This document shows, piece after piece, positions 2,878 to 34,000 of a DNA stretch of 64,000 nt. Position 1 is the first letter of the stretch, and every line of letters starts with the position of its first letter. This DNA is from Thermoanaerobaculia bacterium (GTDB lineage: Bacteria > Acidobacteriota > Thermoanaerobaculia > Gp7-AA8): positions 4,365 to 68,364 of the forward strand of contig DATLFB010000033.1 in the NCBI GenBank assembly GCA_035525285.1, written 5' to 3'. The translations under genes were made by a program, and so were the position numbers. The notes under the pieces were generated by a model. It was not told the DNA's origin and searched no databases. It worked only from the letters and a program-made list of their open reading frames with translations.

Positions 2878-2950
2878 GTTGCCCGGTTACCCGGTTGCCC
2901 AGTTGCCCGGTGGGGTTCACTGGGAAACCGAGTGACCGGGCAACCGGGCA
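2878..2950. repeat. Palindromic element, family I
   Basis: ttgcccggttacccggttgcccagttgcccggtg...cactgggaaaccgagtgaccgggcaaccgggcaacc. Confidence 0.8.
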
Positions 2951-2998
2951 ACCCCATCGTGTACACTCCCCCGCAATCTGAAACGAAGAGGCCCCCGC

Positions 2999-4125: not shown

Positions 4126-4177
4126 GGAGGGCGGACGTCCCGTCCGCCACTTCGGCGGACGGGACGTCCGCCCTCCT
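4126..4177. repeat. Palindrome family G (GGAGGGCGGACGTCCCGTCCGCC ... GGCGGACGGGACGTCCGCCCTCC)
   Basis: Sits between the convergent dioxygenase (+) and ftsY (-) genes. A bidirectional-terminator-like GC hairpin. Copies at 7407, 49305 and 58193. Confidence 0.8.
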
Positions 4178-5101
4178 TTACTCGAAGAGCGTGTCCACGT
4201 AGGTCTGCGGATCGAACGGGATCAGGTCATCCGCCCCCTCGCCCACCCCGACGAACTTCACCGGGATGTCGAACTGGCGCATGATCGAGAGGATCACGCC
4301 GCCTTTCGCGGTGCCGTCGAGCTTCGTGACGATCATGCCCGTCACCTTCGCCGCTTCGAGAAACGCGGCGGCCTGACTGACGCCGTTCTGGCCGGTCGTG
4401 CCGTCGAGCACGAGCAGCGTCTCGTGCGGCGCGCCGGGGAGCTCTTTGTCGATCACGCGATGGATCTTCGAAAGCTCCTGCATCAGATGCGATTTGTTGT
4501 GCAGGCGGCCGGCGGTGTCGATGAGCACGACGTCGGCATTGCGCGACTTCGCGGCGGAGACGGAGTCGTGCGCGACGGCAGCAGGATCCGAGCCGGCCTT
4601 GTGCTTCACGAGCGGTACGCCGATGCGATCTGCCCACATCTGCAGCTGCTCGATCGCGGCGGCGCGGAAGGTGTCGGCGGCGCCGAGGATCACGCTCTTC
4701 CCTTCGCTCTTCCAGCGTGAGGCGAGTTTGGCGATCGTCGTCGTCTTCCCGGTGCCGTTCACGCCGACGACGAGGATCACGAACGGCTTCGCGCGCGAGA
4801 GGTCGATCGTCTGCGCCGTGCGCTGCGGGATGAGCGCGCGCGTCTCGTGGCGGATCACTTCCGTGAGCCGCTCCATCTTCGTGATCTTCTCGTCGCGCAC
4901 GCGCTGCTCGACGCGCTCGACGAGCGAGGCCGTGAGCTCCGCGCCGACGTCGGCGCCGAGCAGGCCTTCCTCGAGGCCATCGATCGCGGATTGATCGATC
5001 GGAAGGTCGGGAGTCATCGACTCCTTCACCTTGTCGATGATCTCGGTGTGGGTCATGAAGAGCCCACGTTTGAGTTTGTCGAAGAGTGATTTTTCAGCCA
5101 T
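4178..5101 (-). CDS. ftsY: Signal recognition particle receptor FtsY
   Basis: LVVGVNGTGKTTTIAKLA...DTAGRLHNK...TKLDGTAKGG (SRP GTPase G1-G5 motifs). Confidence 0.9.
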   Translation of the reverse strand: MAEKSLFDKLKRGLFMTHTEIIDKVKESMTPDLPIDQSAIDGLEEGLLGADVGAELTASLVERVEQRVRDEKITKMERLTEVIRHETRALIPQRTAQTIDLSRAKPFVILVVGVNGTGKTTTIAKLASRWKSEGKSVILGAADTFRAAAIEQLQMWADRIGVPLVKHKAGSDPAAVAHDSVSAAKSRNADVVLIDTAGRLHNKSHLMQELSKIHRVIDKELPGAPHETLLVLDGTTGQNGVSQAAAFLEAAKVTGMIVTKLDGTAKGGVILSIMRQFDIPVKFVGVGEGADDLIPFDPQTYVDTLFE

Positions 5102-6434: not shown

Positions 6435-7052
6435 CTAAGGCACAAAGGACGCAACGATCACGATCAACAACAACGCCGCAACGCCGGCCGCAATCCAGAG
6501 TGCCTGCACCGTCGGCTTGTGCATGTCCACCGTCTCGCGGCGTTCGCCGAGGAGGTACTGGAGATATTCGACGCGGGGCTTCATCACGCCGATTTTTTCC
6601 TCGACGTTGGGGTAGAGCACTTCGTTGATGCCGGGGACGATGACGACCGGGATCGAGGTCGCGCCGCCCTGGCGGTTGATGTAGTTGGCGAGCGGCACGT
6701 TATGCGGCGAGTCGGTGGAGACGACGAGGCAGTGATAGACGGTCGTCGGCTGCAGCACGGACAACACGGTCTGCACGATCGACTTCGCGCTGTACGTCTG
6801 CACGACCGACTCCGAGGTCTGGCGGAGGATGCGCTCGTTCAGCTCGGGGACCCGCGTGAAGATGAAGATCGTCTCGCCACGGGTCATCGGCAGCTTCTCT
6901 TCGCGGCGGTAAATCACCTCGCCGTACTCGTCCCACCACTCGGGACCCTGCTCGGTCGTGAATCCCTCTTCGCCGAGGCGGTCCATCAGACGAAGAACGG
7001 GATCGCTCCCTTCCGGCGACTCGATCGGCTTCTCAGCCTTGAGCTCTTGCAT
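6435..7052 (-). CDS. Hypothetical protein with a C-terminal transmembrane anchor, co-transcribed with a CheY-like receiver
   Basis: Start taken at MQELKAEKP (ATG 7052). C-terminal helix ALWIAAGVAALLLIVIVASFVP. No recognisable family. Confidence 0.4.
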   Translation of the reverse strand: MQELKAEKPIESPEGSDPVLRLMDRLGEEGFTTEQGPEWWDEYGEVIYRREEKLPMTRGETIFIFTRVPELNERILRQTSESVVQTYSAKSIVQTVLSVLQPTTVYHCLVVSTDSPHNVPLANYINRQGGATSIPVVIVPGINEVLYPNVEEKIGVMKPRVEYLQYLLGERRETVDMHKPTVQALWIAAGVAALLLIVIVASFVP

Positions 7053-7404
7053 ATTTATCGACGAGACGAATGAGATCCGCAAATTCAAAAGGCTTGCCCA
7101 TGTAGTCGTCCGCGCCGCAAACCCGCGCTTTCTCGGCGAGATCGAGGTCGCCGGAGAGGATGACGTACGGGATGTCGCGGGTCTCCGGCGTCGCCTTGAG
7201 CGTGCTGCAGAGCTGCTCGCCGCCCATCCCGCGAATCGTGAGGTCGGCGATGATCATCGCTGGCCTCGCCTCCTTCGCCCGCGCCAGCGCGCTGTTGCCG
7301 TCGGCGACGACGAGCGACTCGTGTCCGTGGCGCTGCAGCACGAGCGAGATCAGACGCGCGACCTGCGGATCGTCTTCGACCACGAGAATCAAAGTGCGCT
7401 CCAT
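7033..7404 (-). CDS. Single-domain response regulator (CheY-like receiver)
   Basis: MERTLILVVEDDPQVARL...MIIADLTIRGMGGEQL...GADDYMGKPF. Confidence 0.8.
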   Translation of the reverse strand: MERTLILVVEDDPQVARLISLVLQRHGHESLVVADGNSALARAKEARPAMIIADLTIRGMGGEQLCSTLKATPETRDIPYVILSGDLDLAEKARVCGADDYMGKPFEFADLIRLVDKYARAQG

Positions 7405-7406
7405 TG

Positions 7407-7463
7407 GAGGGCGGACGTCTCGTCCGCCCTGTTCACCAGGGGCGGACGGGACGTCCGCCCTCC
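7407..7463. repeat. Palindrome family G
   Basis: ggagggcggacgtctcgtccgccc...gggcggacgggacgtccgccctcc. Confidence 0.8.
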
Positions 7464-8019: not shown

Positions 8020-10845
8020 TTGACCCGCTCCCCCGCCGCCGTCCTCATCGCCCCCTACCGCGAGATTGCCGCCGCCGTCGCCGCCCGTCTCGCCGCCGCG
8101 CGCGAGGGCTCCGATCCGCTCGACGCGTGGGCCGAAGAGGTGATCGTACCGTCGCGGGGGATGGCGGAGGCAATCTCGAATGAGTTGCTCGTGCGGACGC
8201 CGCGCGGCGTCGCGGGGGTGCAGATCCGCTTTCTGGACGAGCTCGCGCGCGCTCTCGTGAACGATGCGGGCGCGTTTCCGCGCGCAGCGTCGGATGCGGA
8301 GCGCCGGCTGGCGATGCGGATGGCGGTGCGCACGGTGCAGCATCCGATGATGGAGGGCCGCGGCGTGGCGGCGATGCTCGAGCGCTCGTATCGTGATCTG
8401 CGCGACAGCGGTCTCACGCTCGACGGCCTCTCCACGCGCGGCCTGCGCAATCCGCAGCGCACGCAGGCGATCCTCCGCGCATTCGCGGAGTACGAGCGCC
8501 TCATCGCACAGCTCGGCGCGATCGATCCCGCGGATCTCCTCGCGCAGGCGGAGCGCGTCGCGGAACACGCTCGTCCGCAACTGCTCGCCGGCTTCTACGA
8601 CATGACCGGCGCGCAAATGCGCTTCGTTCAGTCGCTGATGCCCCGTATCGCCGCAGTCTGGATTCCCACTGACATGCCGTTCGCCCAGCCGTTCATCGAA
8701 CGTAGCGGCGGGCTTCAGCCCGCCGGAAGCCGGCCGGCTGAAGCCGGCCGCTACGTTTCAGATGCAATGTCCTACGACACGAATCACGCCGAGCTGCGCG
8801 AGGTGTGCGCGCACGTCGCGGAGCTGCTGGAAGGGGGCGAGCAAAGCATCGCCATCACCGCTCGTTCCCTCGACCCCTACGCCATCCATCTCCTCAACCG
8901 CTTCGCCGCCGAGCACGGCTTCGCGACGACGCTGCCCGACGAAATCCCGCTCGCGGCCCATCGCATCGGCCGCGGCGTGCTGACGCTGCTCCGTCTGCGC
9001 GATCGCGGCTTTCCGCGAGGCGAGGTGCTGGAACTGGTGCGCGACGGCCTGCTCGCGCGCACGCGCATCGACGTCGATCGCGCGGACTACGAGACGCGCC
9101 GCGCGCACATCGCCGGCGGCACGAGCGAGGAGCTGGCGCCGCTGCGCAATCGTTCGCGCGCGCTCGACGAGTACATCGCGCTGGTGGCCGAGCTGGAGGA
9201 GTTGACCTCAGGGCTGCCCAGCTACCCGGCTGCCCGGCTACCCAGCACTTCGCCGGGAAGCCGGGAAGCCGGGAAGCCGGGGAGCCCACCGGAGCTCAGC
9301 AGTCTGTTTCGTGTCGAGACCGAGCTCGATCTCGTCGCGGCGGCGAGGCTCGACGAGATCGCGGCGCTGTTCCGGCGGACCGGACAGGCGGGATCGCCTG
9401 TCCTCCACGACCTCATCGACGCGATCGAGCAGGTGTCGCTGACGCAACCGCCGAGCGCGGGACCGAAGGTGTGGGCGGGCGATGTGATGCGCTTTCGCGG
9501 GCGCTCGTTCGCGCACGTGTTCGTCGTGCGGATGCAGGACGATGTGTTCCCGCAGCGGCGCACCGAGGATCCGCTGTTTCCCGATTCCGACCGCCGCGTC
9601 CTCGGGATGCGCGAGATCGGCGACGGGCGGGCGGAGGAGGAGCTGCTGCTGCAGCTCGTGCGCGAGTCCGCGGCGCACGTGCACTTCTCGTTCGCAAGCG
9701 GCGACGGGTTCGGCAAGGTGCTGCGGCCGTCACGGTATCTCCGCGGGCTTGACGTAGCGACCGACTTCAGCCGGTCGAAGGGCGGGCTGAAGCCCGCCCC
9801 TACGTTGTTGCGTCCCCTACAACTGCTCGTGAGGTCGGGAACGCGGTCCGTGTTCGACAGCTACCTCCCGATGCTTGCGGAGACCTTCCGCGCGCGCGTG
9901 CAGTCGGTGACGCCGACGCAGCTCGAGGACTTCGGCGAGTGTCCGCAGAAGTTTTTCTTCAAGCATCTCCTCGGCGTGCAGGAAGTCGAGCATCCCGAGC
10001 GCGAGCTGCAGATCCATCATCGCGAGAAGGGCTCGATCGATCACAAAATCCTCGAGCGCTTCTATCGCGCGCTGTCGTCCGCCGAGCTCGCGAACGCCGC
10101 GGCCGCGCTGCCGCGACTCCCCGACGCGCTCGCCGCGCGGCTCGACACGATCATCGACGAGACCTTCGACGAGCACGAGCAGCAGTTCCCGCCGTTCAAC
10201 CGCACGGTGCGCGGGATCGAGCGGCGCGCGACGAAGCGCATCCTCCGCGAGTTCCTCGCGGGCGACATCGCGGAGCTCACCGCCAGCGAGCTCGAGCCGC
10301 GCCACTTCGAGTACCGCTTCGGCGTCTCGCGCCGCGGCGCGTCGGATCATCCGGAGCCGTTCATCGTCCACGCGGGCGGCGTGCCGGTGCGCGTCGAGGG
10401 GACGATCGATCGCATCGACTACGGCGGGGCCGGCCTGCGCATCGTCGACTACAAGTCGGGAAAAGCAATCCGGCACAACTATCTGCCCGAGAAGATCGAT
10501 CGCGGCGTGCGGCTGCAGCTCGCGCTGTATGCGATGGCCGCCGCGGAGTTCTTCGACAACGCCAACGTCAGCGGCACGATCAAGCCGATCGTGACGGGCG
10601 AGCAGAAATTCAAGTTCGCGTTCGTGCTCGAGGAAAAGCGCGCGACGCTGCTCGAGACGCTCGAGATCTTCCTGCGCGCGATCACCGGCGGCATCTTCCC
10701 CGCGTTCCCGAACGACGAAGACTTCAACTCCTGCAAGTACTGTCCGGTGAGCCACTCGTGCCGCACGCGGCACGATCAGGAGGAGCGCTACGCCGTGCAG
10801 CAGCACCGCGATCCGCGCACGCTCCTCGGCGGAGGCGCGCCGTGA
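8020..10845 (+). CDS. AddB-like PD-(D/E)XK nuclease subunit of a two-subunit helicase-nuclease
   Basis: 941 aa. C-terminal nuclease motif IDRIDYGG..RIVDYKSGKA and Cys staple FGECPQKFF...DFNSCKYCPVSHSC (AddB-type Fe-S). Carries three in-frame palindromic elements (8700-8756, 9210-9290, 9757-9810). Confidence 0.7.
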   Translation: MTRSPAAVLIAPYREIAAAVAARLAAAREGSDPLDAWAEEVIVPSRGMAEAISNELLVRTPRGVAGVQIRFLDELARALVNDAGAFPRAASDAERRLAMRMAVRTVQHPMMEGRGVAAMLERSYRDLRDSGLTLDGLSTRGLRNPQRTQAILRAFAEYERLIAQLGAIDPADLLAQAERVAEHARPQLLAGFYDMTGAQMRFVQSLMPRIAAVWIPTDMPFAQPFIERSGGLQPAGSRPAEAGRYVSDAMSYDTNHAELREVCAHVAELLEGGEQSIAITARSLDPYAIHLLNRFAAEHGFATTLPDEIPLAAHRIGRGVLTLLRLRDRGFPRGEVLELVRDGLLARTRIDVDRADYETRRAHIAGGTSEELAPLRNRSRALDEYIALVAELEELTSGLPSYPAARLPSTSPGSREAGKPGSPPELSSLFRVETELDLVAAARLDEIAALFRRTGQAGSPVLHDLIDAIEQVSLTQPPSAGPKVWAGDVMRFRGRSFAHVFVVRMQDDVFPQRRTEDPLFPDSDRRVLGMREIGDGRAEEELLLQLVRESAAHVHFSFASGDGFGKVLRPSRYLRGLDVATDFSRSKGGLKPAPTLLRPLQLLVRSGTRSVFDSYLPMLAETFRARVQSVTPTQLEDFGECPQKFFFKHLLGVQEVEHPERELQIHHREKGSIDHKILERFYRALSSAELANAAAALPRLPDALAARLDTIIDETFDEHEQQFPPFNRTVRGIERRATKRILREFLAGDIAELTASELEPRHFEYRFGVSRRGASDHPEPFIVHAGGVPVRVEGTIDRIDYGGAGLRIVDYKSGKAIRHNYLPEKIDRGVRLQLALYAMAAAEFFDNANVSGTIKPIVTGEQKFKFAFVLEEKRATLLETLEIFLRAITGGIFPAFPNDEDFNSCKYCPVSHSCRTRHDQEERYAVQQHRDPRTLLGGGAP
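8700..8756. repeat. Palindrome family J (CGTAGCGGCGGGCTTCAGCCCGCCG...CGGCCGGCTGAAGCCGGCCGCTACG), intragenic and in-frame
   Basis: Perfect inverted repeat inside the addB-like CDS (encodes RSGGLQPAGSRPAEAGRY). Copies at 9757 and 54664. Confidence 0.8.
9210..9290. repeat. Family I-like element inside the addB-like CDS, in-frame
   Basis: ctgcccagctacccggctgcccggctacccagcacttcgccgggaagccgggaagccgggaagccgggg encodes LPSYPAARLPSTSPGSREAGKPGSPP. Confidence 0.7.
9757..9810. repeat. Palindrome family J, intragenic
   Basis: gcgaccgacttcagccggtcgaagggcgggctgaagcccgcccctacg within the addB-like CDS. Confidence 0.7.
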
Positions 10846-13800
10846 TGCAGAAGGCATTCGAGTGGGGGACCGGCAAACCTGCCGGTCCGGACAGGCGAGA
10901 TCGCCTGTCCTCCACCTCGCGTCGCAACGTCGTCATCGAAGCGGGCGCGGGAACGGGAAAGACGACGGCGATCGTGGCCGAGGTGCTGAAGCTGATGCTC
11001 GAGCGCGCGGAGCTCGCGCCGGAGCGCATCGTGCTGATGACGTTCACGGAGAAGGCCGCGGGCGAGATCGCGGATCGGATCCGGACAGCGCTCGAGGAGC
11101 TCTCCCAGTCTCCGGCTCTCACCTGGCCCATCGACTCCGCGCATCCCCTCCTCACGATCGACGACCCCGACTCCGCGCGCCGCGCGATCGCGCATCATCT
11201 CGCCAACATCGACGCGCTGCGCTCGCAGACGATCCACTCGTTCTGCCAGTCGCTGCTGCGCACCTTCCCGATCGAGGCGGGGCTCGATCCGCAGTTCAAG
11301 ATCATCGAAGGCTTCGAGCGCTCGCTGCTCTACGGGCAGCTGTACGACGCGTGGATCGATCAGGAGACGCGCGTCCATCCGACGGAGGAGGGAGTGCGCG
11401 AGTGGGAGCTGCTCTTCGCGCACGCCGGCTATCTCTTCCAGATCCGCGATCTGATCCTCGGCATGATCGATCGCCGCGATCTGCTCGAGGAGACGGGCTA
11501 CGACTTCGGCACGCTCGAAGAAGTCGAAGAGAAGCTGATCGATGCACTCGTCGCGATCCGCCGCTGCGGCGATACGGTGGGCGACGAGCAGGCGCAGCGA
11601 ATCTTCGCGTACGTCCGCGAGACCGATCCGCCGGCGCCCGGCGACATCGATCGCTGGCTCGAGTATCTCCATCCGATCGCCGCTTCGATCCGCGATGCGA
11701 ATCTGCCGCGCCACGGAATCCTCAAGGAGGCGCTGAAGATCCTGCGCGGCAAGGAGTCGAAGGGGCGCTCGGTCTACGACTATCTCGTGCGCCACCGTGC
11801 GGCAATCGCGCTGCTCGCGCTGACGCGGCGTTTCCTCGCCTACCTCGACGAGGAAAAGCGCCGCCTCGGCGTCGTCGACTTCGACGATCTGCTGCTCCGC
11901 ACGCTCGCGCTGCTCGACGACGCGGGCGTGCTGGCCCGCGCGCGCGCGCAGTTCGATTTCATCTTCGTCGACGAGTTTCAGGACACCGACCGCACGCAGG
12001 CGCGAATCATCGACCGCCTCGCGCGCGACGCGTCGGGCACATACGTCGCGGGCAAGACGATCGTGGTCGGCGATCCGAAACAGTCGATCTACGGATTCCG
12101 CCGCGCCGATCCGGAGACGTATTACCGGATGACGGAAGGTCTCGTGGCCGGCGGAGCGGAGCGGCGCGTGATCGCGGATCAGTACCGCAGCGATCCGCCG
12201 CTGCTCGACGCCGTGAACGCGCTCTTCGCACGGCTTTTCCCCGACACGCTGCAACACGACCCGAACGTGTTCCGCCCGCGTTACACGCCGCTGCGCGCGG
12301 CGCGCGAGTCGTCGCGCCGCGAGCTCGATGCGCGGATCACGCTGCTGCACGCGCAGCACGACGACGCGGCGGATAAGTTCATCGTCGAGGCGGAGGCGAT
12401 CGCGAAGTGGATCAAGGCGCGCGCGGAAGGCGATCTGCGGCGCTTCGCGATCCTCTTCCGGCGCCTGACGAAGCTCGACGATTATCTCGACACGTTCGAT
12501 CGCCACGGCATCGACTACGTGCTCCCGCCGACGCGCATGTTTCTCGACCGCCGCGCGCCGGTCGATCTGCTGGCGGTACTGCGAGCGATCGCCTACCCGT
12601 TCGATCACGGCGCGCAGATCTCGGCGGCAAGGACGCCGTACTTTGCGCTGACGGATGAGGAGATCGCGGAAGGGGTGCTGCGTGCTGCGTGCAGCGTGCA
12701 GGAGGGCGACGTGACGCAGCACGCAGCACGCAGCACGCAGCACCCGTGGACGGCATTCGTCGCCGCCATCGCCCGCTTCCGCGACCACGCCCGCCATCTC
12801 ACCGCCTCCCAGCTCATCGACCTCGTCATCACCACGACCGGCATCGAGCGCGTGTACGACGCCGCGGCGGACGGCGTGCGCCATCTGCGGCATCTCGAGC
12901 ACGTGCGCGCGATCGCGTTCGAGTACGACCAGCGCACGGGCGGATCGGTCGGACAATTCGTCGGGGAGATCTCGCAGCGGCGCGGCGAGCCGGACGAGAT
13001 CGAGCCGAGCCTGATCGACGAGTCGAAGAACGCGGTGCGGATCATGTCCGTGCACGCGGCAAAGGGGCTCGAGTTCGAGACGGTCATCCTCCCCGACCTC
13101 GCCGTGCAGCCGCCGTCGAACGACACGCAACTCTTCACCGTCGAGGAGCCGCGCAGCCTCGTGCTCGCGGGGCGCGTGGAGTCGATCTCGGCGAACTTCC
13201 GCTTCGCGAACGGCGAGAAACTGAAGCGCATCAACGCGCGGCGCGAGGAGGCGGAGACGCGGCGGCTGTTCTACGTCGGCGTCACGCGCGCGAAGACGGA
13301 CGTCGTGTTCGTCTGCAATCTCGCCGAGGAGACGAAGAACGTTGGATTCCTGCGCTGCCTGTGCGAGGGGCTGGGGATCGAGAAGAACGCGCTCACGGGA
13401 ATGTTCGTCGATGGACGCACGGTCCATGCGACAGAGATTGGGGATGTTGCGTTCGAGCGGGTGTGGAGTGCGGCAACGCCAGTTGCCGCTGTCGTAGGAA
13501 AGCGGCGACTGGCGTCGCCGCACTCCACACTCGAAGCGGAGCTCGCGACAGGCGGGATCGTCCCGTGCGAGATCGCCGCGCCCTCCCCTGTCACCGCGCG
13601 TCTCGCGACGAGCGAAGTGGCCGCGCGCCGCGCCGGCTCCCGCAATCGCGCGGCGGGCATCCTCCTGCATCGCGTCCTCGAGCGCTGGGACGGACGTGCC
13701 GATACCGAGCCGCTGCTGAAGCAGCTCGCGGTCGAGACCGCGGCGGAGGAGGAGGCGGTCGCGCGCGTACGCCGGCGGCTGGCCACGGTCGCGCGCTCCG

Positions 13801-14819: not shown

Positions 14820-15694
14820 AGGCACTCTTCGTCGTCAACGAGCGCTCCGGCCCGCGTCGCGGCCGCGATGTGGCAGCCGCGATTCGACGCGCGGTTGCGT
14901 GCGAGTACGAGATCACGCCGTGTCCGCGGAAAGAGGATCTCGGCGCGATCGTCGATCGTGCGGAGCGCGAAGGCTTCGATGTCGTGTACGCGGTCGGCGG
15001 CGACGGCACGGTGCACGAGATGGCGAAACGGCTCATCGGACGCGCGCCGGCGCTCGGCGTCGTTCCGACGGGCTCCGGCAACGGCTTCGCGCGGCACATC
15101 GGGCTGCCGATGAATCCGGAGCGCGCGGTGCGGGCGTGCGCGGCGGGACGGATCGTCGCGATCGACACGGTCGAGGTGAACGGCGAGCCGTTCGTCGGCG
15201 TCATGGGCCTCGGCCTCGACGCCGCGATCGCGCATCGCTTCGCCCTGCGCAGCGAGCGCGGTGTGCGTACGTACTTTCGCGAGGGGCTCCGCGCGTTCAT
15301 GAGCTTTCGCGCCGAAGAGTACGAGATTGTCGTCGGGGAGCGAACGCTGCACAGCCGTGCGCTGGTCATCGCGGTCGCGAACTCGGCGCACTACGGCAAC
15401 AACGCGCGCATCGCGCCGCTGGCCTCTCTCCGCGATGGCTTGCTCGACATCGTGATCATCGAGGACGCATCCCTGATCCGCTCGATCCTGCTCATGAGGC
15501 GGCTCTTCTTCGGCACGATTCATCAGGCGCGCACCGTGAGGATGCTGCAAGCGCCCGAGGCGACGATCCGCCGCGCGAGCGCGGGACCGGCGCATCTCGA
15601 CGGCGAGCCGCGCGTTCTCAGCGCGGAGCTGCACATGCGCGTGAATCCGCTGTCGCTGAAGGTGCTCGTGGCCGGCGACGCGCGCGCGTTATAG
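14816..15694 (+). CDS. Lipid kinase, diacylglycerol-kinase catalytic-domain family (YegS-like)
   Basis: ATGA overlap with the marC stop. ...DVVYAVGGDGTVHEMA...GVVPTGSGNGFARH (DAGK_cat motifs). Confidence 0.75.
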   Translation: MKALFVVNERSGPRRGRDVAAAIRRAVACEYEITPCPRKEDLGAIVDRAEREGFDVVYAVGGDGTVHEMAKRLIGRAPALGVVPTGSGNGFARHIGLPMNPERAVRACAAGRIVAIDTVEVNGEPFVGVMGLGLDAAIAHRFALRSERGVRTYFREGLRAFMSFRAEEYEIVVGERTLHSRALVIAVANSAHYGNNARIAPLASLRDGLLDIVIIEDASLIRSILLMRRLFFGTIHQARTVRMLQAPEATIRRASAGPAHLDGEPRVLSAELHMRVNPLSLKVLVAGDARAL

Positions 15695-16105
15695 CGTCGC
15701 CATCAGCTCTTCGATGCGCCGCGCGAGCTCGTCGCGCGTGTGGATGAAGCGGCCGAAGCGCGTGTGCGGATCGTCGGGGCCGAACGAGGGATCCTCGATC
15801 GGCCAGTGCTCGATGCGCTTCGCGCCGGGCCACATCGGACAGTCCTGCGCCGCGGAGTCGCAGACGGTGACGACGATGTCGAAGGTCTGCTCCACGAACC
15901 TGTCGGCCGATTTCGACTCGGCATCCTGGATGTCGATGCCGAGGTCCGCGAGGGCCTGAATCGCGAGCGGATGCACCCAGCCCGCGGGGCGCGATCCGGC
16001 GGAGACGACGTCGACCCTGTCGCCATGAAACGCGCGCGCGAGGCCTTCCGCCATCTGCGAGCGCGCGGCGTTGCCGGTGCAGAGAAAAAGAATCTGCTTC
16101 TTCAT
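15689..16105 (-). CDS. arsC: Arsenate reductase, LMW-PTP family (thioredoxin-coupled ArsC)
   Basis: MKKQILFLCTGNAARSQMAEG (CX5R P-loop)...VVTVCDSAAQDCP. Confidence 0.8.
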   Translation of the reverse strand: MKKQILFLCTGNAARSQMAEGLARAFHGDRVDVVSAGSRPAGWVHPLAIQALADLGIDIQDAESKSADRFVEQTFDIVVTVCDSAAQDCPMWPGAKRIEHWPIEDPSFGPDDPHTRFGRFIHTRDELARRIEELMATL

Positions 16106-16458
16106 ACGCGCGTGGCCTCGTAGGTTCGCTCGTTGCGGACGTTGCCGGTGTTGAGCGTGCTCGCCGGCTCGAAGAGCAGCACGTGCGCCTCCTCGGCCGC
16201 GACCGGCCGATGCTCCACGCCGCGCGGGACGATGAAGAATTCGCCCTCGCCGAGGGGGATGTCGGCGTCGCGAAGCTGAATCGTCATCGCGCCTTTGAGC
16301 ACGAGAAAGAGCTCGTCTTCATGCTCGTGGTGATGCCACACGAACTCGCCCTGCAGCTTGACGACTTTGACGTGCTGGCCATTCAACTCGCCGACGACGC
16401 GCGGCTGCCACTGCTCGGTGAAGGAGGCGAGCTTTTCGGTGAGAGAGACTTTTTCCAT
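16102..16458 (-). CDS. Cupin domain protein
   Basis: ...VWHHHEHEDELFLVLKG...GEFFIVPRGVEHRP (cupin motifs G(X)5HXH(X)3-4E... and G(X)5PXG(X)2H). Confidence 0.7.
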   Translation of the reverse strand: MEKVSLTEKLASFTEQWQPRVVGELNGQHVKVVKLQGEFVWHHHEHEDELFLVLKGAMTIQLRDADIPLGEGEFFIVPRGVEHRPVAAEEAHVLLFEPASTLNTGNVRNERTYEATRV

Positions 16459-16504
16459 CGGAGAAGCGTACCGCGGAGCGGGCCATCCTGTACGCTAAGA
16501 CCGG

Positions 16505-16831
16505 ATGGACAAACCGCGAATCTTCCTGGGCTCGTCAGGAAAGCAGGAGAAACTGCTGCAGGCGCTGACACGCGGTCTCGAAGACGTCGCGCACGTAGAA
16601 GCGCCGCAACTGGACGGGACGGGAGAGATCCGAGTCGAATCCGCCGATCGCGCGGACGGGTACTTCACGACTCATTCGGACACTCACCCCAAAGTCAACA
16701 CAAGGACGTCCGGCGTCTATCTGCGCGCCGATCCGGAGGACTTGAACATCCTGGATGGACGCGGCAACCGGCAACGCGCGGAGTTGATTGCGGAGCGTCT
16801 GAGAGACTGGAAGTCGATCACGAACGTGTGA
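16505..16831 (+). CDS. Hypothetical protein
   Basis: 108-aa ORF with no recognisable motif. Lies at the edge of the lower-GC islet. Weak call. Confidence 0.25.
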   Translation: MDKPRIFLGSSGKQEKLLQALTRGLEDVAHVEAPQLDGTGEIRVESADRADGYFTTHSDTHPKVNTRTSGVYLRADPEDLNILDGRGNRQRAELIAERLRDWKSITNV

Positions 16832-16894
16832 GATCGGTTAGTGAGACGCCGCGCTTTCGGCGACGTTCTCGGCTCGTCGCGTTCGACTGCGACA

Positions 16895-17188
16895 CTAACG
16901 AGCCAGCTTGCGCCAATAACCAGGGCGCCTGCTTTCGTGCGCGACCGCGACGACGTTTACTGTGTTGCTCTCTACGAAATAGACAAGAGAGTATGGATAC
17001 GTCGGGAAAACGTACCGCTGCGTTCCGGCGATGTAGCGCGGCCACCGGTGCGGAGCCTCTACGATGAGATCAACGGCATGATCCAGCTCGCGTAGGAAGC
17101 CGGCTTCGGCCACTTCACTCTGATCCCGGTACCACTTGCGGGCCTCTTCGACTTCGTCGTCAGCCGCCTCGAAGAAATGTGGCTGCAT
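16895..17188 (-). CDS. Type II toxin, RelE/ParE family
   Basis: 97 aa; ...RWPRYIAGTQRYVFPTYPYSLVYFVESNTVNVVAVAHESRRPGYW, typical ParE/RelE C-terminus. ATGA overlap with the upstream antitoxin. Confidence 0.7.
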   Translation of the reverse strand: MQPHFFEAADDEVEEARKWYRDQSEVAEAGFLRELDHAVDLIVEAPHRWPRYIAGTQRYVFPTYPYSLVYFVESNTVNVVAVAHESRRPGYWRKLAR

Positions 17189-17418
17189 TAACGATCGAGG
17201 CGATGCAAACGAGCTCGGACTTCCGCCCAGGGAATGGTCTTTACTCTGCCCGCTCGGTAGTCTTCCATGCGTCGCTGAATTTCAGCGGCCCAAGCCTCCT
17301 CGACTCCTTCATCCCGCACCTCTTCGATGCTCTCGAGGAGGAGGCCTGCGAGCTCGGCACGCTCGCCGGGGGGTAGCTCTGCTGCCTTGGCGTAAAGTTC
17401 CTGGACGTCGCGCGTCAT
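17188..17418 (-). CDS. Antitoxin (putative addiction-module component, ParD-like)
   Basis: 76 aa acidic protein, ...ELPPGERAELAGLLLESIEE...AWAAEIQRRMEDYRAG, immediately upstream of and overlapping the ParE-like toxin. Confidence 0.6.
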   Translation of the reverse strand: MTRDVQELYAKAAELPPGERAELAGLLLESIEEVRDEGVEEAWAAEIQRRMEDYRAGRVKTIPWAEVRARLHRLDR

Positions 17419-17702
17419 GCGGCGATTCTAGCGCGAAACCGTTCGAGCGATCTCTGCGCATGCGTTGCCGAGGGTGCTCGTGGGCGCCGAGCTGCTGACA
17501 ATCAGGTCTCTGCGCTGCGGCGGGCGTCACGCGCGTGGAGCAATGCGGCGCGGCGGCTGCCGCGCCACGAATGCTTTTGACGGCGGCGCGATGTGCCGCC
17601 GACGTGCCGCCGTCCAGCTACGATGTTCCCGAGCCGGCTCGGCCGGCGGGCCGGACAGCAGCCCGCCCGTCGGCTCCTGTGTGGAGTTAAGCCGCGGCGG
17701 CC

Positions 17703-18407
17703 CTACACTGGTGATGAGAAGTGCTCGAGCAGGAAAGGCTCCAAAAAGCCGAGCAGACTCGAAACGTCCGCTTCCGCGATCCTTGACCAGTCCGCATGCA
17801 TCGCAGCATTCCTCAATTTGACGTAGGACGCAACAATTGGCCCCTGTGCGCCGCCTAAAATCCCCTTTGATTTGAGCGCGTTCATGACGGCGTCCAACGT
17901 CTTGTTGCCGACCGCCAGATCGAGTTCTAGCGCCTTGCGCTTTAGAGCGTCTTCTAGCGCCGCCGACGCTAATACCGCGGCCACATCCTTGTATCCGGCT
18001 TTCAACTGCGTCCTGGCAAGCGCCACAAGATCGCCAATAACTACACCAGCGGCTTCGGTCGCGATGCTGTTGATCAAACCCAGTTCAATTTCTTCGGCCG
18101 TATTGCGAAGCACCGCATCCAACGATTCCGCGAACGACTGTATGCGTTTGTTTGTATAACCTAAAGGTGTCGAGAGCTTATGCATCTCCATGAGTGCCTT
18201 GATCTGTGGCGACGTCGAGCCGTATAGACTAGTCGCGATATTCAGTGCCCCGGCGAAAACAGCGTCCACTTCGGTGCGCGCGTCTGCTCTCCCAAGCTCG
18301 TGCGGGTTTGCAACTCGGCTTCGCAATTTCTGGATGCGCGTGAGGTATGCCTCACGGCGCTGCGATACATTCATGGGCGGAGAATATAGCACTTCACTCC
18401 TGTCCAA
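17703..18407 (-). CDS. HEPN-like (DUF4145-type) protein
   Basis: 234 aa in a lower-GC stretch. C-terminal ...KLRNAAMHADW fits the HEPN Rx4-6H motif. Confidence 0.4.
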   Translation of the reverse strand: MDRSEVLYSPPMNVSQRREAYLTRIQKLRSRVANPHELGRADARTEVDAVFAGALNIATSLYGSTSPQIKALMEMHKLSTPLGYTNKRIQSFAESLDAVLRNTAEEIELGLINSIATEAAGVVIGDLVALARTQLKAGYKDVAAVLASAALEDALKRKALELDLAVGNKTLDAVMNALKSKGILGGAQGPIVASYVKLRNAAMHADWSRIAEADVSSLLGFLEPFLLEHFSSPV

Positions 18408-18992
18408 ATTAGCTTTTGAGAAACAGCGCTCAGATGGGCGTCGCCCGCAAGAGAACGTCGCTGAGTCTCGTTTCCGGCCACGAAACCAGCCATGGACGCC
18501 ACTTTCCGAGGCTCTATCAGGCAGGACGGACGCGGTCCAGCCGGGCTGGCAATTTGGACAGCAGCCAAGGAAGGAAGGGGTCTCATCTCGCGAACGTTAC
18601 CGGAGCGTCGTGTTTTCAATAAGTTAGGAGCGCGATTTTGTCGATTCACAGCTAATTTGGACAGCAGTGATAGCACTTACGTCGGCCGACAAGGCCATTG
18701 GAGGTATAAATGAAACAGCCGACCAGACGGCTCAAAACTCGTCGGCCCAACAGCTTTTTCGTTCCACATCCCCATCCACCCTCGTAATCGGCAGATATTT
18801 TCTGTATAGGAGGCGCATGTGCCGCGCCACCCGGCCGTGTGATCGCCGGACGTCTTCTGTGGCTTGTGTCGACAGAGTATTTACGTTCTCGACCCGTCGG
18901 ACATGCGCGTCGGATTTGCGGCCGCCGCAGCGCTTCCGCGAGCGAACGACAATCATTTTTCGGCGCCGTCTGAAGCGCAAAACCGCGCGCGC

Positions 18993-19247
18993 CTACGGCG
19001 AGAGCCGCTCGATGATCCAATCCTTCGGCTCGCGCAATCGATACACGATGCGGTCGTGCAGGCGATCGGCTCTCCCCTGCCAGAACTCGACCGGGATCAC
19101 GCGGTAGCCACCCCAGTGCGGGGGGCGTGGGATCTGGCGGTCGCGGTACGTCGCTTCGAGCTCCGCGAAGCGGAGCTCGAGATCGACGCGGCCGTGGATG
19201 ACCGCGCTCTGGTTCGAGGCCCAGGCATTATCGGAGTCGTGTTTCAA
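18993..19247 (-). pseudogene. Duplicated 3' fragment of pdxH (last ~84 codons)
   Basis: Translation [77 protein letters not shown] is ~95% identical to the C-terminus of intact pdxH (19711..19960). The DNA forms a direct repeat of about 250 bp. Confidence 0.75.
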
Positions 19248-19429
19248 GGCTCTGGAATTGAAAGTGCGCGACAGATCCTGCGAGCGAGATGGTTCGGAGT
19301 TTCCTGGTGCCGCGGTACGGCTTCGATATGACCGGTCTGCGGATTACACCACAGTTCGTGCTCTTTCCCCTGGCGCTTGAGATAGCAGCCGTGCCGCCGC
19401 AGATGACGAAGGAGCTCGCGTTGTTTCAC
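19244..19429 (-). CDS. hicA: HicA family toxin (YcfA-like mRNA interferase)
   Basis: 61 aa; [41 protein letters not shown]. Confidence 0.75.
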
Positions 19430-19641
19430 TCAACAACAACCGTCTCGCAAATCGCCGTTTCGGGAACACCACGAAGCGCGTCTTCGCGCCGGTCTTCAAG
19501 AATCAGCGCAATCGCTTCGGCAAGATTGGCGCGCGCTTCGCCGGTCGTTCGACCCTGCCCATTCGCGCCCGGGATCTCCGGGGAATAGGCGATGAACCAG
19601 TCTTCGTCGCGCTCGATGATTGCAGTGAATTCGTTGTGCAT
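19426..19641 (-). CDS. hicB: HicB family antitoxin (UPF0150)
   Basis: 71 aa; MHNEFTAIIERDEDWFIAYSPEIPGANGQGRTTGEARANLAEAIALILE. Overlaps hicA by 4 nt. Confidence 0.7.
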   Translation of the reverse strand: MHNEFTAIIERDEDWFIAYSPEIPGANGQGRTTGEARANLAEAIALILEDRREDALRGVPETAICETVVVE

Positions 19642-19710
19642 GGAGCTTCGATTCTACTCCGACTTCGAGGGTGACGATCGGCGACGGTAGCGCGGCGCGT
19701 CGCGCCGCCC

Positions 19711-20322
19711 TTACGGCGAAAGCCGCTCGATGATCCAGTCCTTCGGCTCGCGCAGGCGATACACGATGCGATCGTGCAGGCGATCGGCTCTCCCCTGCCA
19801 GAACTCGAACTCGACCGGGATCACGCGGTAGCCGCCCCAGTGCGGGGGGCGTGGGATCTGGCGGTCGCGGTACGTCGCTTCGAGCTCCGCGAAGCGGAGC
19901 TCGAGGTCGCCGCGGCCGTGGATGACCGCGCTCTGGTTCGAGGCCCAGGCGCCGAGCTGGCTGCCGCGCGGGCGGGTGGCGAAGTAGGCGTCGGATTCCT
20001 GTTCGGTCGTCTTCACCACCGCGCCTTCGATGCGCACCTGGCGGTCGAGGACCGGCCAGAAGAAACAGAGCGACAGGCGGGGGTTCTCGGTGATCTGCAC
20101 GCCCTTGGGGCTGTGATAGTTCGTGTAGAAGACGAATCCGTGCTCGTCGAAGTCCTTGAGCAGGCAGACGCGCGAGCGGACGATGCCGTCGGCGCCGCAC
20201 GTGGAGACCGTCATCGCTTCCGGCAGCTCGCGGATCTTCTGTCTGGCTTCCTCGAACCAGTGCGCGAACTGCGCGAACGGGCTTTTCTCGAGATCGCTCT
20301 CGAGCAACGCGGTTGTATTCAC
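19711..20322 (-). CDS. pdxH: Pyridoxamine 5'-phosphate oxidase
   Basis: ...VSTCGADGIVRSRVCLLKDFDEHGFVFYTNYHSPKG...RIEG...[15 protein letters not shown]... Confidence 0.85.
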   Translation of the reverse strand: MNTTALLESDLEKSPFAQFAHWFEEARQKIRELPEAMTVSTCGADGIVRSRVCLLKDFDEHGFVFYTNYHSPKGVQITENPRLSLCFFWPVLDRQVRIEGAVVKTTEQESDAYFATRPRGSQLGAWASNQSAVIHGRGDLELRFAELEATYRDRQIPRPPHWGGYRVIPVEFEFWQGRADRLHDRIVYRLREPKDWIIERLSP

Positions 20323-21002
20323 GAAACACTCCTCTCACGCAGCAGGCGCTCGATCTTGCGGAGGACACGCAGCGACTCGGCGTGCGGCATGAGCGCGGCC
20401 GCCGGGTCGAGCGCGACCCAGGCGAGCTCGTTCGACTCGCCGCGGTCGATGGTGATGGCATCGGGGCTCGACGTGCGTGCGAGATATCGCACGTCGAAGT
20501 GATCGTGGTCCGGCTCATGGCGCGCCGCGGGGATTTTGTGGATGTCGAGATCGAAGATGGCCGTGGCGCTGGCGCGGATTGAGGATTGAGGATTGAGGAT
20601 GGCGCTGGCGCGGATTGAGGATTGAGGATTGAGGATAGCGCTGGCGCGGATTGAGGATTGAGGATTGAGGATTGAGGAAGGAGGGAGCAGCTCGAGATCG
20701 GTGAGGCCCGACTCCTCGGCGCCCTCGCGGAGCGCGGCGGCATCGGGCGTTTCATCGCCTTCGACGTGCCCGCCCATCTGCAGCCAGCGATCGAGGCGGC
20801 GGTGATGATGGAGGAGCAGGCGGCCGCCGTCATCGATGATGAAGCAGCTCGCGGTGACGTGTCCCGGCGCGAAGTGCGCGCGCGAGAAGGGCTCGGCGGC
20901 GTCGCGCACGAGATCGAGCATCGCATGGCGATGCCCCGCCTCGAGCTCGTCGGCGGGCTCGTAGGCTCGGAGCTCTTCGAATAGTCGCGCGGCGCGGGAC
21001 AT
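20319..21002 (-). CDS. NUDIX hydrolase with an internal 3 x 13-aa tandem repeat
   Basis: Start at MSRAARLFEEL (ATG 21002). Nudix box GGHVEGDETPDAAALREGAEESGL. The ORF-track extension to 22256 is antisense to the kinase gene. Confidence 0.8.
   Translation of the reverse strand: MSRAARLFEELRAYEPADELEAGHRHAMLDLVRDAAEPFSRAHFAPGHVTASCFIIDDGGRLLLHHHRRLDRWLQMGGHVEGDETPDAAALREGAEESGLTDLELLPPSSILNPQSSIRASAILNPQSSIRASAILNPQSSIRASATAIFDLDIHKIPAARHEPDHDHFDVRYLARTSSPDAITIDRGESNELAWVALDPAAALMPHAESLRVLRKIERLLRERSVS
20571..20690. repeat. Direct tandem repeat, 3 x 39 bp (ggcgctggcgcggattgaggattgaggattgaggat), inside the NUDIX CDS
   Basis: In-frame. Encodes (ILNPQSSIRASA)x3 between the Nudix box and the C-terminal region. 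The unit itself contains (GATTGAG)x3. Confidence 0.85.
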
Positions 21003-31097: not shown

Positions 31098-34000
31098 TTA
31101 TTTGTGGAGGACAGGCAATCCTGCCTGTCGCGCTGGGACAGGCAGGATTGCCTGTCCTCCACGGTCGCCGGTTTGCACCGCCGGCGCGGGTGGTTGTCGA
31201 GGTGCGGGAACGGGCGCTGGACCCTCGGAGCCCGGACGCGCGGCGCGCATCTGATCGAGTCCGATGCTCCAGATGTAATCGCGGAGATAGTTCGTGAGCG
31301 CGACGGCGTCGGCCATCGTCTTGCGCAGCGCTTCGTCGCTCTCGAAGTACGGCCGCAGCACGGCGCGGTGGCCGGCGAACTGCGGCGTGTCGATCGCGTT
31401 CGCCAGCGGCGACTGGAAGCCGCCCGTCTGCGGATCGCGCGGGAAGTTCGCGGGCATGCGCGTGTCCGGGACCATCTCGCCCGGACGTCGGATCCAGTCG
31501 GCGATCCAGTCGTGGCGCAGGCGCAGTTTCGAGAGCGTGAGGTTCGGCGCGAGCGACGTGGTGTCGGCGACGTTGGGCACGGGCGGATTCGCGGGATCGA
31601 CCGGCGCCGTGGAGTGGCACTGCGCGCAGCGCAGCATCGTGTAGACCTCGCGGCCGATGGCGACGTTCTGCTGCGAGGGCGTCGCGAAGCGATGCGTGTC
31701 GAACTGCGGCTCGTCGCCTTCCGCGGCGAATCCGGCCACGAGCGTGGCCGCTTCCTGGTCGGTGAAGCCGAACGTCGGCATGCGCACGCTCAGCCACGGG
31801 CGGATCTTCATCACCGTCGGATCCTTCAGGAAGTTGAAGAGCCACGGCGACTGCGAGCGCTCGCCCTGCGGCGTCAGATCGGGCGGGAGAAAGTTCGTGT
31901 CGGTGATGAGGGCCGCGATCGCGCGGCCGTTGCGATTGACGACGTGGCATCCGCGGCAGTTGCGCTGCGAAATGATCTTGCGTCCTTCCTCCACCGCGCG
32001 CATGCCCGGATCGCGCGCGGCGAGACGGTTCTCCGCGACCTTCTCCTTCGTCAACCCGAGGATGACCGAGGAGACGAGCTGCGCTTCATCGGGCGACAGG
32101 TTGAAGTTCGGCATCTTCAGCTTGTCGTTGTAGGGCTTGGTACGGCGGTCGTCGTACACGCGCGGGCTGCGGACCTTGTTGTAGATCCACGACGGGACGT
32201 TGTGGAGGACGTACTCCTTCTTCCCGTCCTCGTGCTTGTAGTCGTGCGTGTGTGTGGATGTGCCGAAGAAGCCGAAGTCGAAGAGGTGCAGCGTCTTCGA
32301 GCCTTCGGTGGTGAGCTCGGTGCCGATCGGCTTGAGGCCGTCGAAGCCTTTGATGTCGTGGCAGGAGTAGCAGCCGTACTTTTCGATGGACCGCTGCCCG
32401 AGGTAGACGAGCTGCTCGCGATCGCTCATCGCTTTCAGCTTCGCGTCCGCGTCCACATCGGACATCGTGTTGATGAGGTAGCCCTTCGCCAGATCGTGCA
32501 CGGCCTTCCGCAAGGGCGGACGAATCGGCTCCTGCATGAAGCGCTGCTTCTGCAGCGACATCAGGTAGGCGGTGATGTCGGATGCCTCCTGATCGCTGAG
32601 GCGGAGGCTCGGCATCGGCGCGAACGGATCGTAGGCCTTCGGATTCTTCACCCAGTTGAAGATCCAGTTCGGATTCGTCTTCGAGCCGACGCCGGTGAGG
32701 TTGAATCCGAAGTGGCGCTCGAGCGGGAAGTCGTCGCGCTTCGCGACACGCACGGCGCCGGTCTTCGCGTCTTTGATCGTGTCCTGCGCAATGTGGCAGC
32801 CCATGCAGCCGATCGTATCGACGAGCTGCTTGCCGCGCGCCGCGTCACCGCCCGACGCCGGGGCGGACCAGTTGCGATGCGTGGATTTGTCAAAGAGGTA
32901 CGCGACGATCGAGTGGACCTCGGCATCCTGATACCGGACGTTCTGCGCGCGCTCGGCCTCCGGTACCGCCGGTCCGGTCATGTTGCGCTGGTAGAAGAAC
33001 GACGGCATGCGCGTGGTCGGACGGAAGTGCGTGGGGTTCGCGATCCAGCGGAAGGTCCAGGCGGGATTCGTTTTCTCGGCGATGCCTTCGAGCGAGGGGC
33101 CGGGCTTCTGCAGGTCGGTGAAGCGCCAGTTGTCGATCTTGTGGCAGGCATGGCAGCCGTACAACTCGACCATGTGCGCGGCTTTGTTGATCCGCTCGCC
33201 GTCGCGCACTTCCATCTGCGTCGCATGGCACTTCAGACATCCCGCCTCGAAATGCTGCCGCGGATACATCGGCGTCTCGAGGAACGGATTGACCTGATAG
33301 CCCCAGTTGCGCTTTTCGTAGTCGCCTTTCGTCGGGAAGAACGGCGAGGTCTTCTCCCAGCGCATCTCCATGCGCCGGCTCATCGGCGTGTGGCCCGCGC
33401 GTCCGAACTCGGTCGCGCGATCCTGCCCGCGGTGGCAAACCGTGCAGCCGTACTCGAGCAGCGGATGCGGCGAGGAGGAGCCGACGAAGACGTCGAGCTT
33501 CGGATGGGTACGGAAGGGATTCATCAATTCCGTCTTCGCGTCGACGATGCGCCTGAGCTCCGCGACGCGCTCCTCGGTCTCCGCCCGCCGCGCGGGAAGG
33601 ACGAGATTCCTGTCGAGCTGCGTCTGCAGTTGCTCCGCGAGCCGCTCCGCTTCCCGCTTCGACTCGAAGCCGGGGCGATCGATCGCGCGATGACAGGTCA
33701 TGCAGCGGTCGACGCGGGGCACCGACATGTAGTTCATGTCGATGAAGAGATCGCTGAGGACGACCTGATCGATTTTCAGGGTCGGGTTGATGAAGTCGAG
33801 CATCGGCGCGTTGAGCAGCAGGTTCGGCACGGATGCGACGGCGACGTTGCGCAGCTGCTTGTTCAGCAGATCGCTGCCGGCGGTGAGCTCTTTCCTGCGG
33901 TTCTCCAGTTCCTTGATGCGGGTGAGGAACTCGTCGACGCGCGCGCGGGCGGCGTCGCGACTGCGCGTGACGTCCTGCAGGACGAGATTGAGGCGGCCCA

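Follow-up and report, generated by a model that had tools for sequence, protein, structure and literature searches.

A patch of foreign, lower-GC DNA of about 3.2 kb adjoins pdxH, the gene for pyridoxamine 5'-phosphate oxidase, in a Thermoanaerobaculia bacterium (GCA_035525285.1, contig DATLFB010000033.1, forward strand, positions 4,365-68,364; these 64,000 nt are referred to here as the window). It lies between a cupin gene and pdxH, and we consider it likely to be a composite, partly decayed addiction/defence islet, assembled by at least two acquisitions at a variable spot in a conserved backbone, one of its pieces, a minimal hicB-hicA toxin-antitoxin cassette, having entered through homology with the end of pdxH. 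This reading is drawn from patterns in the sequence, foremost a long direct repeat around the cassette whose two copies appear to be alleles of one gene end. Coordinates of all features are collected in Table 1.

The cassette is bracketed by two copies of the 3' end of pdxH. Copy A is the end of the intact gene and copy B a displaced fragment at the far side of the insert; they align over 250 columns at 93.2% identity (243/250 nt for copies B and A, E=2.5e-103) and span the gene from codon 125 to ~10 nt past the stop codon. The 474 bp between them (19227-19700) hold hicB and hicA as their sole genes, and the order in gene direction is intact pdxH, 59 nt, hicB-hicA, 17 nt from the hicA stop, pdxH 3' fragment and then the rest of the islet. 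Copy B has a native-like GC content at third codon positions (GC3) of 0.86. At most sites where the two differ, copy A agrees with the majority of 33 relatives; copy B has lost 6 bp in frame and has Val in place of a Gly that is invariant in the same 33. Copy B is thus the dead one.

The remaining differences between the copies are mostly silent. In the window, seven of the eight substitutions are synonymous (7 synonymous : 1 non-synonymous), where random changes in this segment of pdxH would be 23% synonymous. Pooled over four loci, namely the window and the comparison loci L127, L177 and L099 described below (L-numbered entries are comparison loci or contigs, P-numbered entries database proteins), the count is 35 synonymous : 14 non-synonymous (71%), with 34/49 changes (69%) at third codon positions. 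If one copy had decayed neutrally after duplication in situ, ~38% synonymous changes would be expected (p=0.006 for the window alone, p=2e-6 pooled). Because the differences are mostly synonymous, the copies seem to have diverged while both were the ends of working genes, and would represent two alleles, not a recent duplication; in that case the DNA bringing hicBA would have come with a pdxH end of its own. An equivalent view is that the cassette would already have adjoined pdxH in a related donor, two alleles then being joined by recombination.

This pattern bears directly on a known class of event, insertion with long target duplication, in which the host's own 240 nt would have been duplicated on insertion and the copies would have diverged afterwards. 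Such insertions of restriction-modification units were reportedly described by Nobusato et al. (2000, Gene 259:99). In the published cases, small restriction-modification units without a mobility gene lie between direct repeats of 30 to ~420 bp; related genomes have a single copy of the repeated sequence, which in many cases includes a stop codon, so that the host gene is left intact (Furuta, Abe and Kobayashi 2010, PMC2853133; see also PMC3874152). The criteria of Furuta et al. (PMC2853133) are a direct repeat of more than 30 bp, an insert below 20 kb, a complete unit and no mobility gene, and they fit the window well: its repeat of 243/250 nt spans the stop codon, and its insert of 474 bp holds hicBA alone, with no mobility gene. 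The likeness ends with the copies themselves, which differ mainly at synonymous sites and look allelic, whereas an in-situ origin predicts the far lower synonymous share given above. All four cases, moreover, lie at 92-94% identity, with no spread up to 100%, and we think it quite improbable that the repeat arose in this way. The cargo differs too. Breakage of DNA by the cargo was suggested by the authors as the driver of long target duplication (PMC2853133). From family knowledge the toxins of toxin-antitoxin pairs are expected to act on RNA or the ribosome, so that DNA breakage by the cargo cannot be the driver for hicBA.

The route that we favor would run as follows. Incoming DNA carrying hicBA and, with it, another, slightly diverged allele of the final ~240 nt of pdxH would have recombined through pdxH homology; the exchange, between related strains, would have been a single crossover (Campbell-type) or some other homology-anchored event. 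In the outcome pdxH would stay intact and the cassette be left between long direct repeats, from which later recombination between the repeats could loop it out. The cassette with its own repeat boundaries (19227-19700) would be one piece of the islet. The other would be the DNA from 16459 to 18983, comprising an intact ParE/RelE-fold pair, an intact HEPN protein with an Rx4H motif and a TIR gene without its TIR domain. Judged by their families, both toxin-antitoxin pairs would counteract their own loss (addiction) and may abort phage infection. An integrase need not be invoked.

The order of full gene, cassette and 3' fragment recurs at three further loci, which were met while comparison loci were being collected, and in all of them, as in the window, the copies are 92-94% identical. 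L127 comes from an unrelated lineage whose pdxH is only 52% identical to that of the window; in L177 the cargo includes a relative of the window's HicB, with no hicA in the insert; and in L099 an island with a Fic/Doc toxin takes the place of the cassette. The outer repeat boundary lies no more than ~10 nt from the stop codon in the window, L127 and L177. The inner boundary within pdxH is shifted by ~50 nt between the window and L127, and the repeats measure 105, 199, 243 and 399 nt; it is from this variation in length and inner boundary that we argue for the absence of a fixed recombinase core site. No integrase is present within any of the four inserts.

These features must be set against site-specific integration, by which hicBA would be the remnant or a non-autonomous derivative of an element that attaches at the pdxH 3' end, its integrase acting in trans or since deleted. 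The element would carry a replacement gene end, like prophage e14 and phage 21 in icd or like cis-mobilisable elements without an integrase. In Escherichia coli, e14 and phage 21 leave an intact hybrid icd gene, the inserted DNA and a displaced icdC fragment; the e14/icd repeat extends over one to two hundred nt up to the stop codon, and most of the differences between its copies, which share ~92% identity, are silent. The topology of the window is the same, pdxH being intact and the displaced fragment lying at the far side of the insert. The outer repeat boundary at the stop codon also fits, as do the mostly synonymous differences, which are expected of an element-borne functional gene end, and addiction could explain why a toxin-antitoxin pair alone survived deletion of the element. 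However, e14 and phage 21 are elements of many kilobases with an integrase gene of their own, whereas the window insert consists of 474 bp with hicBA only and no integrase open reading frame (ORF), and inserts as small as 474-850 bp, none with an integrase, are found among the four loci. Furthermore, the inner repeat ends of L127 and L177 are their most diverged parts, not the identical core that a shared site would leave, and the lengths and inner boundaries vary as described. We therefore regard site-specific integration as rather unlikely.

The window comes from a metagenome-assembled genome (MAG), and the copies look like two alleles of the kind that co-existing strains would supply, which raises the question of whether two strain variants of the pdxH region were simply joined head to tail by the assembler. 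The probability of this appears to us so small that it deserves hardly any weight. At the junction only ~9 nt (GCCTGGGCC) are shared, and the copies match exactly over no more than 71 nt at a stretch; at a large k such as 141, no k-mer path would join them without real reads. That value was taken from the k141 contig names of related SMAG assemblies; as the 71-nt match is shorter, an assembler of that kind would not confuse the copies, provided that this MAG was assembled likewise. The layout recurs in three further assemblies from other projects, and the marks of decay in the fragment (the 6-bp deletion and the G-to-V change) are unlike a live allele.

Comparison with relatives indicates that the islet sits at a variable spot. 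At the protein level, pdxH shares 75-87% identity with its counterparts in soil Thermoanaerobaculia/Acidobacteriota MAGs, and ~45 related loci keep the order DUF420-(NUDIX)-pdxH-(cupin)-arsC-DAGK-MarC; the window reads DUF420-NUDIX-pdxH, islet, cupin-arsC. None of the ~45 related Thermoanaerobaculia/Acidobacteriota genomes and contigs has any islet gene at the pdxH locus, at the protein or the DNA level, and because the backbone is conserved there without them, the 16.5-19.7-kb segment is accessory by this comparison. The pdxH 3' end is single-copy in all ~45, which are other species (<=87% protein identity) with different downstream DNA. The interval that follows pdxH in these relatives ranges from 0 to ~5 kb and differs in gene content by lineage, being filled by a PNPOx-like stress protein, a SnoaL-like protein, a thioesterase, vapBC (L112) or the Doc-containing island of L099. 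Searches by blastn and tblastx against 160 loci found no remnant of the PNPOx-like, SnoaL-like or thioesterase genes in the islet.

Several points weigh against the account given here. The recombination route is one that we infer from sequence pattern, and an integrase supplied in trans would leave the same picture; the reading of the entry rests on four loci and on such patterns. An independent contig (Logan contig L178, run SRR8556377) is 100% identical to window positions 15781-17567 and confirms the stretch from arsC through the antitoxin of the ParE/RelE-fold pair. The junction of hicA with the fragment is seen in this one assembly only, exact look-ups of the HicB, pdxH and HEPN ORFs having come back empty; those of pdxH and HEPN began at GTG/TTG starts, a possible cause of the empty result. 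Genome and metagenome scans with pdxH returned no conspecific genome, whether it has the insert or lacks it (best 87%), and the empty site is deduced from other species rather than observed. A donor layout, with hicBA directly after pdxH and no repeat, was likewise not seen. In the profile searches, ParE (PF05016) and HicA (PF07927) score above the Pfam cut-offs, but HicB (HicB_lk_antitox, 19.4 bits, E=1e-3, cut-off 27 bits) and the HEPN protein (DUF4145, 19.6 bits, E=9e-4, cut-off 23.1 bits) fall below them, and for the predicted structure of the latter the Foldseek E-values are not significant.

The base composition of the islet is distinct from that of its surroundings. GC content is 0.54-0.58 at 17800-19000 versus 0.66-0.70 in the flanks, and 18001-19000 is the kilobase of lowest GC in the entire window. 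GC3 is 0.58-0.73 in the islet genes versus 0.85-0.90 in core and flanking genes, and codon usage is atypical. An earlier note on this DNA had described the segment as lower in GC than its flanks, with ~600 bp of AT-richer non-coding DNA and with neither an integrase nor a tRNA. Sliding GC and GC3 bear out the first; the ~600-bp stretch is there, with no recognisable gene (18375-18983, no Pfam or Rfam match); none of the islet ORFs is of integrase size or matches an integrase (ORF list, Pfam), and no tRNA gene occurs anywhere in the 64-kb window. The genes that the note had listed (a ParE toxin and antitoxin, a DUF4145-like protein, the pdxH 3' fragment and hicAB) were all recovered in place with the ORF list, Pfam, NCBIfam and PHROGs. 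It had overlooked the direct repeat around hicBA and the TIR-gene remnant at 16505-16831. Its suggestion of an addiction/defence islet or the decayed remnant of an integrated element draws support from the absence of the segment in relatives, from the atypical codon usage and from decay, which is demonstrated because the TIR gene has lost its domain and the pdxH fragment carries a 6-bp deletion and a Gly-to-Val change. The segment is neither syntenic in all relatives nor uniform in composition. One refinement applies: the islet is not a single element, being made up of two or more pieces, each acquired on its own.

HicA is an mRNA-cleaving toxin kept in check by HicB. In the window the two genes overlap by 4 nt (GTGA), and HicA above the Pfam cut-off, a partner upstream and overlapping, and typical sizes together make hicBA, as judged from its sequence, an intact HicAB type II toxin-antitoxin pair. 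Its HicB is 85-93% identical to proteins named HicB by NCBI and JGI and has more than 8000 homologues, the closest 93% identical. The pair departs from typical HicAB in its order, hicB-hicA, and in the lack of a ribbon-helix-helix or helix-turn-helix (HTH) domain on HicB, a domain that serves autoregulation and is usual, though not universal, in the family; this protein is of 71 aa, as are all of its close homologues, and its match covers positions 2-51 of a 123-position profile, with no DNA-binding domain. No sigma-70-like promoter was found in the 59 nt upstream of hicB. Because HicB reaches 93% identity elsewhere and pdxH at most 87%, horizontal spread of hicBA is indicated; HicB alone also occurs in unrelated contexts in other genomes.

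Contig L167 has a hicBA pair (HicB 93% and HicA 87% identical to those of the window) in an array at 1-4750 of Ga0604452_0000009. The array consists of units of ~1.1 kb, each followed by a repeat of ~200 nt that contains GCCTAAC...GTTAGGC cores. Its units hold a ParE pair, an RDD protein, hicBA with a 60-aa ORF, and a protein similar to CarboxypepD_reg. The whole resembles an array of integron cassettes, or an attC cluster without an integrase in the stretch covered. The likeness of the window's hicBA to an integron cassette is at the protein level (87-93%): similarity between the window and L167 ends at the ends of the coding regions, the attC-like repeat of L167 has no meaningful match at the window cassette, and no complementary core pair (RYYYAAC...GTTRRRY) is present anywhere in the window, nor does one flank hicBA or the ParE/RelE-fold pair. 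A hairpin between the TIR remnant and the ParE gene (16838-16900, GTTAGTG...CACTAAC) has an attC-like look, which was rejected for cores of the wrong polarity.

The toxin gene of the second pair encodes a full-length protein whose homologues, of 97-100 aa, are named ParE by their sources; PF05016 spans both gyrase-targeting toxins and toxins whose target is ribosome-bound mRNA. A ParE-fold toxin of this kind is held in check by a labile TIGR02574 antitoxin. The antitoxin gene lies upstream, and its stop overlaps the toxin start by 1 nt (TAATG). A toxin above the Pfam cut-off, a small upstream partner overlapping the toxin gene and typical sizes recall ParDE and RelBE, the difference from ParDE being that the toxin is paired with a TIGR02574/PF09720 antitoxin and not with ParD. 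By these features the pair is an intact, putatively translationally coupled type II toxin-antitoxin system.

The HEPN-type protein probably starts at the ATG at 18374, since database protein P0001 is 223 aa long and 100% identical. It has 892 homologues, several of which carry a precomputed PF13643 match, and the family consists of free-standing proteins of ~221 aa. The RNAAMH motif to which the earlier note had drawn attention is real: when 36 homologues with identities as low as 38% are aligned, E141-D142, R188 and H193 are invariant and N189 is conserved in at least 90%. This motif (R188-N-x3-H193) is located in the C-terminal DUF4145/HEPN half, the N-terminal half being helical, and the AlphaFold model is all-helical (pLDDT, the predicted local distance difference test, 88). 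With the C-terminal half, Foldseek returned the HEPN structures 2hsb, 1o3u, 2q00, 1ufb, 4nqf and 7ae8, the last a HEPN toxin, at target template-modeling (TM) scores of 0.5-0.73 but with no significant E-value (all >=0.14); the highest, 2hsb at 0.73, superimposes with a root-mean-square deviation of 2.5 A over 116 columns, its E-value likewise not significant. The Protein Data Bank holds no sequence match. Neither side of the gene in the window (ORFs, Pfam), nor any of four other contexts of the family, contains an MNT-type (minimal nucleotidyltransferase) partner. The neighbors of homologues include vapBC (L161), a second DUF4145 protein and a CAP12-type TIR protein (L162), and a UvrD-like helicase with a protease (L163-166).

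We take the product to have the HEPN fold and predict it to be an RNase, of a kind typical of defence/addiction neighborhoods. The DUF4145 branch of the HEPN superfamily is reportedly treated by Anantharaman et al. (2013). The window protein resembles it in the Rx4H motif, the upstream acidic pair, the predicted helical bundle and the defence-type neighbors of its homologues; it differs in being free-standing, in its extra N-terminal helical half, in having no adjacent MNT antitoxin or restriction gene and in scoring below the Pfam cut-off. In L162 (Ga0606642_0000332, 2171-4654) a homologue of 57% identity directly follows a second DUF4145 protein and a 378-aa CAP12/PCTIR TIR protein on one strand, a trio that may form a TIR plus double-HEPN module. 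A common TIR-HEPN module is not supported, the window TIR remnant and the L162 TIR protein being without similarity.

The TIR-gene remnant keeps codons 1-31 and 234-309 of a protein of ~309 aa, with an in-frame deletion junction near 16597/16601. Against P0322 (309 aa; PF10137 E=5e-23, PADLOC TIR effector 3e-32, PycTIR 5e-24), BLASTP aligns residues 1-31 at 90% identity and remnant residues 33-108 with 234-309 at 66%; residues 32-233 of P0322 are lacking, and the ORF has no Pfam match. An exhaustive HMMER search gave 412 homologues. The GC3 of 0.73 is coding-like, and the ORF is called as a gene in L178 too. It is best described as a dead defence gene that has lost its whole TIR domain. Relatives of this protein are often internally deleted (118 and 151 aa) or frameshifted (P0321, P0323, P0330, P0336, P0364, P0371 and P0459), and the family seems to decay often.

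Two spacers, 17419-17702 and 18375-18983, yielded no Pfam match for any ORF, no Rfam family, no similarity to relatives and no promoter or terminator signal above shuffled background. In the second, an inverted repeat of ~30 nt (18385-18414 / 18650-18682) delimits a domain of 298 nt whose end is 12 nt short of the HEPN ATG (fold z=-3.4); the motif occurs a third time at 18551-18569. This domain could be an insert similar to a miniature inverted-repeat transposable element (MITE), or a 5'-untranslated region or leader structure.

Table 1. Features of the islet and its surroundings and of the three comparison loci with the same layout (window positions unless a locus is named)
Feature	Position	Strand	Basis or remarks
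TIR gene remnant, CAP12/Pycsar-type	16505-16831	+	Homology to P0322
ParE/RelE-fold toxin, 97 aa, full length	16895-17188	-	PF05016 E=3e-8, 34.6 bits vs 23-bit cut-off
Antitoxin, 76 aa (Unstab_antitox/TIGR02574)	17188-17418	-	PF09720 E=5e-18, 65 bits; TIGR02574 E=3e-15, 56 bits; both above cut-off
GC-rich spacer, 284 bp	17419-17702	.	GC 0.72; no recognisable gene
HEPN-type DUF4145-like protein, 223 aa	17703-18374 (ORF to 18407)	-	DUF4145 match, motif and fold comparison
Low-GC stretch, 609 bp	18375-18983	.	GC 0.57; no recognisable gene
Direct-repeat copy B, displaced pdxH 3' end, pseudogene fragment	18984-19226 (ORF 18993-19247)	-	PNP_phzG_C E=5e-18
hicA toxin, 61 aa	19244-19429	-	PF07927 E=4e-8, 33.8 bits vs 27-bit cut-off; PHROG 353 'toxin' E=7e-13
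hicB antitoxin, 71 aa, short form	19426-19641	-	PHROG 497 HicB-like E=2e-8
Upstream of hicB, 59 nt, part of inserted unit	19642-19700	-	GC hairpin just past pdxH stop
Direct-repeat copy A, 3' end of intact pdxH	19701-19950	-	Repeat alignment
pdxH (pyridoxamine 5'-phosphate oxidase), intact	19711-20322	-	TIGR00558 265 bits vs 180-bit cut-off, full profile coverage
Palindromic repeats, one group	34488-34594, 47093-47181, 51695-51789
Palindromic repeats, one group	31104-31162, 40206-40269, 50891-50951, 55970-56023
Palindromic repeats, one group	4125-4177, 7406-7463, 49304-49363, 58191-58247
L127 (Ga0209810_1026461), repeats	601-799 / 1463-1661		199 nt, 94%; host pdxH; insert 663 bp; synonymous:non-synonymous 7:4
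L127 cargo, relE toxin	1120-1398	-
L127 cargo, xre antitoxin (HTH/MqsA-like)	810-1127	-
L177 (Ga0597055_0000004), repeats	2329-2432 / 3280-3384		105 nt; host tyrosine recombinase gene 3277-4176 (-), 3' end; synonymous:non-synonymous 6:0
L177 cargo			HicB 89% identical to that of the window; divergent 63-aa ORF
L099 (Ga0190272_10000020), repeats	11112-11510 / 15060-15458		399 nt, 94%; host PNPOx-like 'general stress protein' gene; synonymous:non-synonymous 15:9
L099 cargo			3.5-kb island between pdxH and cupin of a relative; Fic/Doc toxin, SH3-domain protein, DUF2971 and DUF4156 proteins

A number of further observations concern the pdxH locus and the window at large. The idea of pdxH as a hotspot for toxin-antitoxin systems was rejected, a pair lying directly downstream in 3 of ~160 pdxH loci (the window, L112 and L127), which by a rough estimate is about what chance would give. 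In L112 (430-1073), vapB (MazE/AbrB-like) and vapC (PIN) are found ~60 nt downstream of pdxH; no repeat is visible on this contig, which begins inside pdxH. L017 has a 7-kb insertion whose ORFs show native-like GC3. In L001, the closest named relative, and equally in L085, a second copy of the final 27 nt of pdxH occurs 274 nt downstream (6930-6956 / 7204-7230), with repetitive DNA between the two; in L019, pdxH is directly followed by 183-nt tandem repeats (10633-10945). Upstream of pdxH in the window, the NUDIX hydrolase gene (20319-20999, minus strand, PF00293 E=3e-13) contains an in-frame tandem repeat of 36 nt x 3 at 20564-20672, built from the 7-nt unit GGATTGA and encoding a repeated 12-residue unit (SSILNPQS...) within the domain; relatives have no DNA match across 20600-20650. 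Several families of palindromic repeats of 55-105 nt, similar to repetitive extragenic palindromic (REP) sequences or MITEs, are scattered over the window, each copy matching its own reverse complement.

All genes of the islet belong, by their profile matches and homologues, to known families, and the islet itself is ordinary, in that toxin-antitoxin pairs and defence genes in decay are plentiful at variable sites in the genomes of soil bacteria. Wider interest is limited to the scar left by the entry of hicBA and to its recurrence elsewhere. The record of that entry consists of no transposase, integrase or attC site, just a second allele of the end of the neighboring gene. No description of a repeat-bracketed layout for toxin-antitoxin loci was found in the literature searched, which is not proof of absence. 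Taken together, the scar and its recurrence suggest a homology-anchored, integrase-free spread of toxin-antitoxin cassettes.

A bolder extension, which we offer tentatively and ourselves find more doubtful than convincing, is that minimal toxin-antitoxin cassettes are mobile units that do without an integrase, the final 100-400 nt of a conserved host gene serving them as an 'attachment site'. Recombination between the repeats would free a circle with one gene end and the cassette, and this circle, once transferred to a related cell, would integrate there through its homology with the same gene, which would be made whole again while the repeats formed anew. Were this true, the 'long target duplications' of restriction-modification units would be allelic copies produced by the same process, not duplications. 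If the entry seen here is general, it would provide addiction modules with a host-recombination route between related strains that requires no mobile-element machinery, and such cassettes would be predicted to be lost or amplified through their flanking repeats.

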